From contig CAVTEN010000004.1 in NCBI GenBank assembly GCA_963733715.1, forward strand, positions 75,109 through 139,108: a stretch of DNA of 64,000 bases. The letters run 5' to 3'. Positions 40,964 through 52,491 of this stretch are shown here, one piece after another. A program made the translations under genes and the position numbers. The notes beneath the pieces were generated by a model. The model ran no database searches and was not told the origin of the DNA. It was given only the letters and a program-made list of their open reading frames with translations. The DNA is from an uncultured delta proteobacterium (GTDB lineage Bacteria > Desulfobacterota > Binatia > Binatales > Binataceae). Each line of letters begins with the position of its first letter. The stretch's first letter is position 1.

Positions 40964-40996
40964 GAAACTTACGCGATTTTATTACATGATGACGTG

Positions 40997-41410
40997 ATGA
41001 GACAGTCCCAAAAGCCCGACGCGCCGTCGTCCAACGATTCTATTATTCGAGCACTGAATCAAACCCGCGGGACTGTGCTCTGCGCGCGACTCGAGAACGC
41101 CGGCGGTCTCGCGGGCCAGGGCCGCGGCTTGCTCGGTCGCGACGGCCTCGAGCCGGGAACAGGGATGCTATTCGAGAATGGGCGATTCACCCCGTTCATG
41201 TGGATGCACATGTTCTTCATGCGCTTCGCGATCGATATCGTTTTCCTGGGACGGGGCAATACCGTCATCAGGATCAATCGTCGGCTGAAGCCGTGGCGAG
41301 TGTCCTCCGTCGTATTCGGGGCGCGAAACGCACTGGAGCTTCCGGCGGGCGCGTCGGACGACAGTTCAACACAGGTGGGAGATCAGATCGTGTTCGAAGC
41401 GATAGAGTAG
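40997..41410 (+). CDS. DUF192 family protein
   Basis: RGLLGRDGLEPGTGMLFENGRFTPFMWMHMFFMRFAIDIVFL..ALELPAG..VGDQIVF. GTG 40994 is also possible. Confidence 0.75.
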   Translation: MRQSQKPDAPSSNDSIIRALNQTRGTVLCARLENAGGLAGQGRGLLGRDGLEPGTGMLFENGRFTPFMWMHMFFMRFAIDIVFLGRGNTVIRINRRLKPWRVSSVVFGARNALELPAGASDDSSTQVGDQIVFEAIE

Positions 41411-41682
41411 GCGTCCGCAATTCGTCCAAAGAACAACCTCATCTAGATTTCTCCAAGTCAGGGCCTATTTAGTGGTGCGATTCGAGGCACCCACCATGGA
41501 TTGACATTCATCGCTAAGCTCATCTATATCGAATCAAGGCCTCTTTGACCGTCTTAGATTTCCAGAAATAGTCCCTCTATGCCTATCTCTGTTGCGGGCT
41601 CGCAACCAACAGTTGCATCACTGCGGCTGCCGTAATCCGCTTTGAAATGAAAAAGTTGAAGGAATTGCTCGATAGATCAAGA

Positions 41683-41698
41683 TGGCACGAGAGATGCT
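41683..41698 (+). promoter_or_regulatory. Candidate sigma-54 (-24/-12) promoter upstream of flp1
   Basis: TGGCACGAGAGATGCT versus consensus TGGCACG-N4-TTGCW. GG and GC are at the canonical spacing, with one mismatch in the -12 box. It lies 183 nt upstream of the flp1 ATG. A sigma-54 activator is encoded at 51007..52491. Confidence 0.5.
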
Positions 41699-41880
41699 CA
41701 CGATACGTCTCGCCTTGGCACAGTAAAAGTTGCCACAAGCGAAGCTCGCGCTCGTCGGGGGAGGAAATGGACTGAACGGTCGCGTGGCGTCGCCGGACCG
41801 TAAGTTGGAAAGCTCGAATAACTAATGGGGACAATGGCCAATTTCGGCCAATTAAACAGACTGAAGGAGGATACGGGACA

Positions 41881-49761: not shown

Positions 49762-49762
49762 T

Positions 49763-50698
49763 ATGAGCCCATTCATGATTGGCGTCGGGGTCTTTCTCCT
49801 GGCCGGCGGCGCATGTGTGGCCCTCTATTTCGCCATCTCGCCGCAAAACCGGGCGGTCGATGAACGCTTCGCGGATTTGGCGGTCCAAATGCGAGCCTCG
49901 CAGGGGGCGCTCGCCGGTGACAACCAGGACGAGACCCTGCTCCGCATGCTTTTCAGATGGGCCGCCAAGCGAGTGCCGCCGCCTAACCTGGATAGTCCCA
50001 CCGGAGAAAAGCTGCAGCAGACCCTGGTGCAGGCAGGATTTATCAAGTCCACCGCGCCGCAGACCTATCAGGTCGCCCGTGTACTGCTGGCGGTAGGATG
50101 CGGCGTCATTGGACTGCTGTTCGGAGCCATTTTTCACCCGGCATCGGCTACTCCGCTGCTGCTCGGAGTTGGCGGCGTCGGAATCGGAATCTTCGTACCC
50201 AGCTACTATTTGGGACGGCGCGCGCGTATCCGGCAGGGCGCCATCGCAAAGCAGCTCTCGGACGTGCTCGATCTGCTGGTGGTATGCGTCGAAGCGGGCA
50301 TGGGGTTGTTCGAGGCGATTCGAATCGTCGGCACAGAATGCGAACGTCATGGGCAGGAAATCGGTTTCGAGCTGAACCTCGTTGCAACCGATATTTCCGC
50401 AGGTGCGAGCCTTGGACAGGCGTTACGCGGGCTCGCCGACCGGACTGCAGTGGAGGATATCAAGCCGCTCGCCGCGACCTTGATCCAGAGCGAGCAACTT
50501 GGTGCGCAGATCGGACCCGCGTTGCGCGCCAGCTCCGATGCATTGCGCCAGCGGCGCCGGCTGCATGCCGAGGAAAGCGCGCAGAAGGCATCGATTAAGA
50601 TATTGTTCCCGCTGGTCATCTTCGTGTTGCCCTCGATGATGGCGGTGATCATCGGACCTGCAATGATCTCGGTCCTCCATACGCTCTCGAATCAGTGA
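49763..50698 (+). CDS. tadC: TadC (type II secretion F-family platform protein)
   Basis: QLSDVLDLLVVCVEAGMGLFEAI..LRQRRRLHAEESAQKASIKILFPLVIFVLPSMM. Confidence 0.85.
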   Translation: MSPFMIGVGVFLLAGGACVALYFAISPQNRAVDERFADLAVQMRASQGALAGDNQDETLLRMLFRWAAKRVPPPNLDSPTGEKLQQTLVQAGFIKSTAPQTYQVARVLLAVGCGVIGLLFGAIFHPASATPLLLGVGGVGIGIFVPSYYLGRRARIRQGAIAKQLSDVLDLLVVCVEAGMGLFEAIRIVGTECERHGQEIGFELNLVATDISAGASLGQALRGLADRTAVEDIKPLAATLIQSEQLGAQIGPALRASSDALRQRRRLHAEESAQKASIKILFPLVIFVLPSMMAVIIGPAMISVLHTLSNQ

Positions 50699-51006
50699 GG
50701 GCGGCCGTCGTTAGACGGCAATCCAAAATAGCCTCTCCCAGGGGGCCTCGGTCCGGCGCGGCGCCGCGTCGGTCCGGGGCCTGTACGTTTTTGGCGCGCC
50801 GTCTGCTCCTCACAGATTTTAGTTGCCGGCATAGAAGCGGAGAGCAAACGCTATGACATTAGCCGCGAGGAAGGCATACCCGCAGAGCGACAGTCGCCGC
50901 CTGGTGAAGATGGCGTCTTCGGCCTTGGACACGCTCGGCCACGGACCAGACGCGGTGAATCCTGTCGATCCGCGCCCTTCTTTTCGTCGCCCGAGAATCC
51001 GATGGC

Positions 51007-52491
51007 CTAAGTAAGACTGAGGCGTTTCATCAGACGATACAGCGTCGTCCGATCGACCCCGAGCGCGGTGGCCGCATCGACCCTGTTACCGCCTGCTGCG
51101 GCTAGCGCCGCCCGGATTCGCACCGTCGCGGCACGATCGAGGCTCGCTTGGAGGGTACCCTCGTCCTGATTCTCGGCGGGCGGCGGGGCGACCTCTACGC
51201 GATTCGAATCGATCGCCGATCCCGCAGCCATATTTGCTCCCACAGCCGAATCGATCCCGGCCGCACGGGCAATGCCGGCAACCTGGACCAGGTCCACATC
51301 GGAGCCGTCGTCGTCGAAGGCGAACGCCTCGGGCATCAGCGTCTCCTGCCCGCTCATCACGACCGCGCGCTCGATGACGTTTTCCAGTTCGCGCACGTTT
51401 CCCGGCCATCGATGGGCGAGCAGCGCCTCCTCAGCTTCCGGCGAGAGCATCAGCGGCCGGCCAGCTTCGGTGGAATGAAACGCAAGAAAATGACGCGCCA
51501 ACGGCAGGATATCTTCGAGACGCTCGCGCAGAGGCGCGATGCGCAGCGGAATCACGCTCAACCTGAAGTATAAGTCGGCGCGGAAGCGGCCCGCGGCGAC
51601 TTCATGGCGCAGCTTGCGATTGGTTGCGGTGACTATCCGGACGTCCACCTTGCGCGGCTTCGACCCTCCGACGCGCAACACCTCGCCGTCCTCGAGGACT
51701 CGCAGCATCTTGGCCTGGAAGTCAGGGCCTGCCTCGCCGATCTCGTCGAGAAACAGCGTGCCGCCCGAGGCGCGCTCGAAGCATCCCGCGCGGTCCCGGA
51801 TTGCACCGGTGAACGATCCCTTTTCATGGCCGAACAGTTCGCTCTCGACCACGCCATCGGCCAGCGCCTTACAATTGATTGCGAGAAAAGGACCGTCTGC
51901 CCGATTGCTCCAGTAGTGAAGCATCCGTGCGACCAGCTCCTTGCCGGTGCCGGTCTCGCCTTCGATCAGAGCCGTCGTGCGTGACGGCGCGACCCGCCGA
52001 ATCATCGAGACGAGCTGGCGGCTCTTGGGCGCCTCGGCGATGAAACCTGCTGCGATGCTGGCGACGTCGAGCTGCTCGCGCAGCTTGCGGTTCTCGCGTT
52101 GAAGCGCGCTCATCTCGACCGCACGATTCACGACCGCGTTCAGCGCGTCGCTGTCGAACGGCTTGGTCACGCAATCGAACGCTCCCCCGCGCAGCGCTTC
52201 CTTGGCCGACTCGGCGGCAGGGAGAGGCACACTCATCACGACCGCCAAATCAGGATCCTTGCTCTGCACGTTCTTCAGTAAGTCCATCCCATCCATCCCC
52301 GGCATCCTCATGTCTGCGATGATTACGTCTGCTCCCTGATGTTCAAGCACCTTAAGTGCCGATTCGACATTGGGACACGTTTCGCATTCGTAACCAGCCT
52401 GTGAAAGGACCATCGCGGCATCGCGTGCAACGTGAAACTCGTCATCGACGATCAAGACTCGCGCATTGTGCTGTCCGTTGCGCTTTTGCAC
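51007..52491 (-). CDS. Sigma-54-dependent response regulator (NtrC/Fis family enhancer-binding protein)
   Basis: Receiver VLIVDDE..IIADMRMPGMDG..KPF. AAA+ GETGTGKE, GSFTGA (GAFTGA variant), LFLDEI, GNVRELEN. C-terminal HTH ALGVDRTTLYRLMKR. Confidence 0.9.
   Translation of the reverse strand: MQKRNGQHNARVLIVDDEFHVARDAAMVLSQAGYECETCPNVESALKVLEHQGADVIIADMRMPGMDGMDLLKNVQSKDPDLAVVMSVPLPAAESAKEALRGGAFDCVTKPFDSDALNAVVNRAVEMSALQRENRKLREQLDVASIAAGFIAEAPKSRQLVSMIRRVAPSRTTALIEGETGTGKELVARMLHYWSNRADGPFLAINCKALADGVVESELFGHEKGSFTGAIRDRAGCFERASGGTLFLDEIGEAGPDFQAKMLRVLEDGEVLRVGGSKPRKVDVRIVTATNRKLRHEVAAGRFRADLYFRLSVIPLRIAPLRERLEDILPLARHFLAFHSTEAGRPLMLSPEAEEALLAHRWPGNVRELENVIERAVVMSGQETLMPEAFAFDDDGSDVDLVQVAGIARAAGIDSAVGANMAAGSAIDSNRVEVAPPPAENQDEGTLQASLDRAATVRIRAALAAAGGNRVDAATALGVDRTTLYRLMKRLSLT

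Follow-up and report, generated by a model that had tools for sequence, protein, structure and literature searches.

A compact Tad/Flp pilus locus of Candidatus Binatus and its setting among the Binataceae

Gene content and conservation of the locus

The stretch of DNA analyzed here, hereafter the window, comprises 64,000 nucleotides of contig CAVTEN010000004.1 (positions 75,109–139,108 of the forward strand; assembly GCA_963733715.1) from an uncultured member of the Binataceae, and contains a compact Tad/Flp pilus locus. Searches with Pfam and NCBIfam confirmed the gene order proposed in the original prediction: a DUF192 gene, four flp genes, cpaB, cpaC, tadZ, tadA, tadB and tadC, followed by a convergent gene for a sigma-54 response regulator; all but the last lie on the plus strand. 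The DUF192 gene (PF02643; 40994/40997–41410) encodes a protein of ~137 aa that matched its family with E=8e-18 (64.7 bits against a cut-off of 27). The first pilin gene, flp1 (41881–42051), encodes a 56-aa Flp prepilin with the processing motif G/QTMAEY (Flp_Fap E=5e-10; 39.5 bits against a cut-off of 32.2). Both flp2 (42147–42317) and flp3 (42398–42568) carry GQTMAEY and gave jackhmmer matches to Flp; in translation, the mature part of Flp2 is the same as that of Flp1, and that of Flp3 differs from both only in the penultimate residue. The fourth gene, flp4 (42680–42850), encodes a divergent Flp-like pilin with GQTMTEY that fell below the Pfam cut-off for Flp_Fap (E=0.0015) and was matched to Flp by jackhmmer (E=5e-17).

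Beyond a 235-bp spacer lie the machinery genes. The product of cpaB/rcpC (43086–44192) contains SAF and RcpC domains in Pfam and matched TIGR03177 with 214 bits (cut-off 71), and cpaC/rcpA (44214–46121) encodes a 635-aa secretin (Secretin E=6.5e-38; T2SS-T3SS_pil_N E=1.9e-18). TadZ/CpaE (46199–47422) is a ParA/MinD-like ATPase with AAA_31 and CbiA matches in Pfam and CpaE-homologue and MinD-family matches in NCBIfam. The secretion ATPase TadA/CpaF (47432–48808) matched T2SSE with E=1.4e-63 and scored 371.9 bits against the TadA-family model TIGR03819, whose cut-off is 373.15. The platform proteins TadB (48814–49761; 315 aa) and TadC (49763–50698; 311 aa) belong to T2SSF and are encoded by adjoining genes. 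The regulator gene (51007–52491, minus strand), convergent with tadC, encodes an NtrC-family response regulator with REC, Sigma54_activat (E=8.9e-65) and HTH_8 domains. In the secretin, a Ser/Ala/Pro-rich low-complexity linker (~150 aa) separates the N-terminal beta-rich region from the pilus-N domain, and CpaB ends in a low-complexity C-terminal tail of ~100 aa; the lengths of both proteins are kept in relatives (632–635 aa and 365–368 aa, respectively).

For comparison, a scan of species-representative genomes yielded 80 Tad loci (designated by L numbers, as are further contigs below); the window proteins were mapped onto all 80 loci, followed by iterative profile searches. The nearest loci belong to metagenome-assembled genomes (MAGs), from Microflora Danica and other sources, that carry the label Candidatus Binatus or Binataceae, which places the window in a Binatus-like member of the Binatota. 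Closest is a contig from ENA (L001), which encodes an identical TadA protein and is 96% identical in DNA to the window at 37.4–53.7 kb. Across orthologous loci, down to ~75% TadA identity, the same order is kept: hemA–ccsA–sirC on the minus strand, then DUF192–flp(n)–[tadE]–cpaB–cpaC–tadZ–tadA–tadB–tadC, with the convergent sigma-54 regulator last; L091, L093 and L094, which are metagenome contigs, share this order. Judged by these comparisons, the gene set is a layout typical of the Binataceae and no oddity of the window locus.

In many Binataceae genomes the Tad locus has a paralogous counterpart, as with L005 and L034 or L007 and L035, and some genomes carry a third locus. In the second paralog (L034 13224–16366; also L028–L036 and L081), the Tad genes are followed by a gene for a 173-aa tetratricopeptide repeat (TPR) protein, without a lipobox in the open reading frame (ORF) as called, and then on the same strand by genes for a peroxiredoxin, a HAD hydrolase and a sigma-54 activator that lacks a receiver. 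The secretin gene is apparently absent from the paralogous loci L035 and L039.

The locus resembles the classical Tad/Cpa systems (Aggregatibacter tad, Caulobacter cpa, Pseudomonas aeruginosa tad/rcp) in its G/XXXXEY Flp pilins and in having CpaB/RcpC, CpaC/RcpA, TadZ, TadA, TadB and TadC encoded in the usual order. It differs from them in lacking tadV/cpaA, tadD/cpaD and tadE/F/G in cis and any candidate for rcpB, in its four tandem flp genes, predicted sigma-54 promoter and DUF192 neighbor, and in the long low-complexity extensions of the secretin and CpaB.

For the ten genes that run from DUF192 to tadC, comparison with the orthologs in L003, L004 and L005 (dS 0.3–1.0) gave dN/dS values from 0.03 (tadA) to 0.34 (flp4), with 0.03–0.07 for tadA, 0.13–0.16 for DUF192, 0.11–0.19 for flp1 and 0.29–0.34 for flp4. 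The Tad genes and DUF192 are thus under purifying selection. It had also been remarked that the Tad genes are intact while many of their neighbors are frame-broken. The facts are as described, with split genes including phaC, cysS, an AI-2E transporter gene and exbD (2571–4575, ~16338, 25298–25792, 61833–63153 and others), but a biological contrast does not follow. The three breaks that were inspected and localized (in phaC, cysS and an orphan flp gene) all lie at A5 homopolymers, and the closest public contigs are nanopore-style assemblies, among which L003 instead has cpaB, cpaC and tadZ split. Because the inspected breaks fall in A5 runs and different genes are broken in L003, the difference between the intact Tad genes and their broken neighbors most likely reflects sequencing noise, as expected of long-read homopolymer error.

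Components missing in cis and the flp–cpaB slot

The original prediction drew attention to the absence from the window of the prepilin peptidase gene tadV, of tadD and rcpB, and of the pseudopilin genes tadE, tadF and tadG. For tadV, tadD and tadE–G this was borne out. A Pfam scan of the locus and ~50 further ORFs of the window found no Peptidase_A24, TadE (PF07811) or Tad/TadG (PF13400) domain and no plausible TadD, with no TPR lipoprotein in or near the locus, and jackhmmer searches of all stop-to-stop ORFs of the window with TadV, TadE and TadG from related loci as queries returned no match. Two superficially attractive proteins were rejected: a TPR protein (1–1023), excluded as TadD by its zinc ribbon and its distance of 40 kb, and a VWA protein (23627–24886), excluded as TadG because it is part of an exbB–exbD cluster. 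With regard to rcpB, the 78-bp gap between cpaC and tadZ holds no ORF that could be a candidate, although no search with the profile of RcpB itself was made.

The same prediction took the gap between flp4 and cpaB for the place usually occupied by cpaA. The gap itself was described correctly: it is 235 bp long (42851–43085), low in GC (48% against 61% for the window) and non-coding in appearance. However, in this lineage it corresponds to a tadE slot. A tadE-family gene of 155–220 aa sits exactly between the last flp gene and cpaB in L008, whose TadA is 91% identical, and in L014, L016, L018, L021, L023, L091, L093 and L094, whereas the slot lacks tadE in a clade formed by the window, L001, L003, L004, L005 and L007. 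An ancestral tadE therefore appears to have been lost from the slot in this clade with no detectable remnant. Consistent with this, tblastn searches of the slots in the window, L001, L003, L004, L005 and L007 with nine TadE proteins from Binataceae as queries gave chance-level matches only, and the gap was rejected as a tadE or cpaA pseudogene.

Other features of the gap fared no better as genes or promoters. A 56-codon ORF (orf56; 42876–43046) is intact in the window, L001 and L003, but has no Pfam match and a dN/dS of 0.69; its conservation is limited to the 3′ half and is at the DNA level, and it is probably non-coding. A possible second sigma-54 promoter, TGGCTCGGGCTTGCT, was discarded, as its spacing is GG-N9-GC in all three assemblies. 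A stem-loop in the spacer (43053–43071) lies just before the cpaB ribosome-binding site and shows compensatory changes in L003.

Turning to where the missing functions might reside, slot-type TadE homologues led us to separate gene clusters in Binataceae that lie far from the pilus machinery and contain several TadE (PF07811) and Tad/TadG (PF13400) genes each. One such island (L087, 2333–10489) shares a 680-kb contig with the Tad locus L029, at a distance of ~50 kb, and another (L089, 8910–19409) adjoins prfA–prmC–murA–hisD–hisB–hisA on a 3.85-Mb contig. A contig from JGI 3300050821 likewise carries his genes together with four flp genes, TadE and two Tad genes, and the position beside murA–hisD–hisB–hisA is a recurrent site for these islands. 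No A24 peptidase was found inside the islands, nor within 10 kb of the pseudopilin genes on the four contigs with unlinked TadE/TadG.

The prepilin peptidase gene is also unlinked throughout the family: none of ~60 Binataceae Tad loci, of any locus type, has tadV within ±10 kb. In other lineages it is encoded in cis, as in all 10 Blastocatellia-type loci for which the pilin-proximal end was recovered and in three Desulfovibrionaceae loci, with Pfam confirmation and TadA ~55–60% identical. Since the prepilins of the window carry the G/XXXXEY site, they should need a TadV-type A24 peptidase, and we assume that tadV is encoded elsewhere in the genome. The canonical pilin site makes this assumption reasonable, as do two precedents. 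In the Tad model of TXSScan/TFF-SF, tadV is a "loner" that may be encoded apart, while tadD, rcpB and rcpC are accessory; and in the superfamily of type IV filaments (TFF), all loci for mannose-sensitive hemagglutinin (MSH) pili lack a prepilin peptidase, a precedent for its being encoded elsewhere (PMC6668835). MSH pili differ from Tad in forming a separate branch derived from type IVa pili, for which donor systems are known in the same genomes.

Seven components of the Tad model are present at the locus (TadA, the TadB and TadC pair, TadZ, a Flp pilin, the RcpA/CpaC secretin and RcpC/CpaB) and should satisfy it. The description of the locus as non-canonical was hence overstated: the genes named are indeed missing in cis, but the model allows a loner tadV and treats tadD, rcpB and rcpC as accessory, and the layout is typical of the family.

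Pilin genes and predicted sigma-54 control

A sigma-54 –24/–12 promoter element, TGGCACGAGAGATGCT (41683–41698, plus strand), lies 198 nt upstream of the flp1 ATG, with GG-N10-GC spacing and the form TGGCAC-N5-ATGCT. In 40 of 46 Binataceae loci, among all three paralog types, the 450 nt preceding the first flp gene contain an element of this class on the coding strand, whereas the background is 0.017 per 450 nt; the spacer sequences vary among loci. This conserved element ties the flanking activator to the pilin genes. At ~70–95 nt upstream of the –24 element lies GTTGC-N6-GCAAC-N5-GTTGCA (41591–41617, plus strand), a plausible activator-binding site, the function of which is suggested by its position only. 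In an alignment of seven orthologous upstream regions, the GTTGC/GCAAC half-sites are invariant while the surrounding sequence diverges, and an A/T-rich stretch separates this block from the promoter. A further block of 25 nt in the 5′-UTR, GGGGACAATGGCCAATTTCGGCCAA (41827–41851, plus strand), is nearly invariant in the seven loci and includes an inverted repeat of 5 bp; taken alone, it does not fold significantly (z –1.4), and it has no Rfam match, a scan of the window with Rfam having returned two tRNAs only.

The regulator, read in translation, combines a receiver domain with the GSFTGA loop; no specific NCBIfam equivalog was reached. Its position convergent with tadC is kept in most orthologous loci, a sigma-54 activator is also found near the paralogous Binataceae Tad loci, and we presume that the regulator of the window is the activator of its flp promoter. 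The flanking activator, which had been presented as an oddity of the locus, is present but should be expected: in Desulfovibrio vulgaris, the sigma-54 response regulator DVU2114 has been shown experimentally to control Flp/Tad genes, with an NtrC-type regulator beside the Tad locus and sigma-54 promoters at the pilin genes (PMC3333781, PMC4641369). Genes for enhancer-binding proteins also flank the Tad genes in the Desulfovibrionaceae loci L068, L077 and L080. The Desulfovibrionaceae regulators share 35–41% identity with that of the window, where the regulation is predicted, and, unlike the window locus, L068, L077 and L078 have tadV, tadE and tadG in cis.

The spot between tadC and the regulator is strain-variable. 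In L001, 3.5 kb (13393–16906) holds an intact GT87 glycosyltransferase gene followed by GT2 and methyltransferase genes, and of the GT87 gene 86 bp (50823–50908) survive as a relic in the corresponding spacer of the window (50699–51006); L013 also carries ~3 kb there. Downstream of the regulator, the window contains a tRNA (53453–53525, minus strand) and an IS110-family transposase gene (55293–56438, plus strand), and a metallophosphoesterase gene found beside this tRNA in L001 is missing from the window.

Three GC-rich stem-loops without a U tail follow flp1 (~42069–42097), flp2 (~42337–42366) and flp3 (~42567–42640) on the plus strand, with RNA-folding z scores of –3.7, –3.3 and –4.7, respectively. 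A consensus scan called none of the three an intrinsic terminator, and they are candidates for attenuators or mRNA stabilizers that set the ratio of pilin to machinery. Among the pilins, flp4 evolves faster than flp1–3, and in L091 and L094 the corresponding place, immediately ahead of tadE, is taken by a homologue of 55 aa; we regard Flp4 as a candidate minor or priming pilin. The window also holds an orphan fifth flp gene (63085–63262, plus strand), missed by the original prediction; a single base within an A5 run breaks its frame, and it was recognized by jackhmmer (Flp E=1.4e-14). With its frame restored, it encodes a normal 58-aa Flp prepilin beginning MLVRQLKIRRKLGGQTMTEYAL and containing GGQTMTEY; a tRNA (63377–63448) adjoins it.

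DUF192 and interpretation of the locus

The DUF192 protein of the window has neither a signal peptide nor a transmembrane segment and weakly matches PDB 3PJY and 3M7A in sequence. Its gene is divergent from sirC and upstream of the flp promoter, and therefore forms a separate transcription unit. It occupies the same position in all orthologous loci that keep the hemA–ccsA–sirC flank, and the 120 database proteins closest to its product all come from Binatus, with 80–95% identity. No DUF192 gene is found near the locus in the L010–L013 clade, where the locus lies in a different context, and in the Binataceae DUF192 may owe its position simply to synteny with the hem/sirC block.

The proposal that co-occurrence of DUF192 with Tad loci be examined in relatives was followed up, and DUF192 proved to recur beside Tad or prepilin-peptidase genes in three phyla. 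Short DUF192 genes (108–125 aa) join Tad genes in several independent arrangements. In the Blastocatellia (Acidobacteriota) loci L064–L074, which share the core machinery with the window locus and have TadA ~60% identical, the array reads flp–tadV–tadE–tadE–cpaB–cpaC–tadG–tadZ–tadA–tadB–tadC–(55-aa transmembrane protein)–DUF192. A short leaderless DUF192 thus stands at the 3′ end of all 10 Blastocatellia-type loci for which that end was recovered, as opposed to the 5′ side in the window locus. In L062, a short DUF192 follows tadC–tadG–tadG. In the Firmicutes, a 112-aa DUF192 consistently adjoins Tad genes inside the tad operons of Bulleidia extructa and Helcococcus, a link noted once before (PMC12786226); these are monoderm bacteria without a secretin and, unlike the window locus, encode tadV, tadE, tadF and tadG in the operon. 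Outside any obvious Tad locus, plasmid pB6464 of Alkaliphilus sp. B6464 (L083 10897–12210) carries a gene for a 327-aa prepilin peptidase followed 4 bp on by a 108-aa DUF192 gene.

DUF192 as a whole is not a Tad-linked family. Long DUF192 proteins (~160–180 aa) are found elsewhere: the signal-peptide protein of S. meliloti with structure 3PJY is encoded beside cspA, conjugative plasmid copies (PromA) lie by korB, and a haloarchaeal plasmid copy is in an unrelated context. As the longer proteins sit in such unrelated contexts, the link to Tad is specific to the short subfamily. A profile search for wider contexts returned only Blastocatellia-like and Binatus-like proteins. On the strength of these gene neighborhoods, we consider the association of short DUF192 with Tad to be real as an association. 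Possibly, the short leaderless proteins (~110–137 aa) are cytoplasmic Tad accessories, perhaps acting in prepilin processing or with the peptidase, in which case the Binatus loci may be minimal, Flp-only Tad machines; we advance this suggestion only tentatively.

Taken together, we propose, with a probability of roughly three in four, that the window contains a standard and functional locus for Tad/Flp (type IVc) pili of Candidatus Binatus (Binataceae, Binatota), in the compact layout typical of the family and with the missing functions encoded elsewhere. In such a system, the convergent NtrC-family regulator would bind the upstream site and activate sigma-54 RNA polymerase at TGGCAC-N5-ATGCT upstream of flp1, a step to which conservation of the element lends support. 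The four tandem flp genes would then be transcribed, and the stem-loops after flp1–3 could limit or stabilize the transcript such that pilin is made in excess over the products of cpaB–cpaC–tadZ–tadA–tadB–tadC. The prepilins would be processed by a TadV-type A24 peptidase, presumably encoded elsewhere, and the minor-pilin role of TadE/TadG may be filled from separate islands, as in relatives, or the divergent Flp4 may take it over functionally. The DUF192 protein, short and cytoplasmic, would be a conserved neighbor with a putative accessory role.

Several observations count against this proposal. Within the regions viewed, ±10 kb around Tad and pseudopilin loci, no Binataceae genome yielded a prepilin peptidase, and the pseudopilin islands were seen in relatives and not in the genome of the window itself. 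In a close relative assembled into megabase contigs (MFD02248.bin.1.51; L005 and L034), neither Tad locus has TadE or TadG nearby. As to regulation, the window contains three sigma-54 motifs against 4.4 expected, so that enrichment within the window alone is not above chance and the case for sigma-54 control rests on position and conservation. The adjacency of the regulator also varies, the GT87, GT2 and methyltransferase genes intervening between it and tadC in L001, and neither rpoN nor a cognate histidine kinase was seen in the 64-kb window.

The lack of TadE and TadG near both loci of that relative is equally what would be expected of a reduced Tad variant, built from Flp-type pilins only, with Flp4 as priming or minor pilin, without TadE/F/G, and with DUF192 as a lineage-conserved accessory factor. 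Such a variant would also explain why tadE is cleanly lost in the window, L001, L003, L004, L005 and L007 while the other genes of the locus remain under purifying selection, and why Flp4 is retained at a conserved position; in public data, moreover, close homologues of slot-type TadE are far rarer than those of DUF192 (226 versus 1256 proteins at E≤1e-5; 3 versus more than 100 clusters reaching 80% identity). However, TadE/TadF-type minor pilins are needed for piliation in Aggregatibacter, Pseudomonas and Caulobacter, and the unlinked TadE/TadG islands of related genomes mean that absence in cis says little about the genome. We therefore consider a reduced variant unlikely. The original prediction had left the choice between functions encoded elsewhere and a reduced variant; the former fits best, given that TadE/TadG of relatives lie in the slot or in islands and that tadV is unlinked in every Binataceae locus examined.

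Two further readings carry much less weight. Loss of tadE and the lack of tadV could signal pseudogenization under way, and the many frame-broken neighbors, the broken orphan flp and the deletion scar between tadC and the regulator might be read in the same sense. Yet all 11 locus genes are intact, their dN/dS values of 0.03–0.34 argue against decay, the tadE-less layout is kept across several species-level relatives, and breaks in A5 runs that strike different genes in different nanopore assemblies point to assembly error; decay of the locus into a non-functional state is very improbable. The idea that DUF192 is a non-homologous replacement for TadV draws on its being the sole uncharacterized conserved gene at the locus, cytoplasmic and adjoining a locus without tadV. 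We know of no protease motif in the DUF192 fold. Short DUF192 and tadV share an operon in the 10 Blastocatellia-type loci with the pilin-proximal end recovered and in the Bulleidia tad operon (PMC12786226), and since DUF192 co-occurs with tadV it is no substitute for it. The location of the Alkaliphilus plasmid gene 4 bp downstream of a prepilin peptidase gene and the lack of DUF192 near the L010–L013 loci also speak against replacement, and we give this idea almost no credence.

A standard Tad/Flp pilus locus thus remains the preferred interpretation, and its novelty lies in the taxon. Literature searches returned no description of Tad pili in Binatota, and the present analysis documents Tad/Flp pili, with several paralogous loci per genome, in this uncultured and abundant soil phylum. 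With the prepilin peptidase unlinked in every Binataceae locus examined and the pseudopilins often unlinked, judging the completeness of Tad systems from the locus only would mislead. Sigma-54 control of the flp genes across the whole family offers one testable lead. The recurrent link of short DUF192 with Tad or peptidase genes across three phyla offers another, and could give a function to a domain with solved structures.

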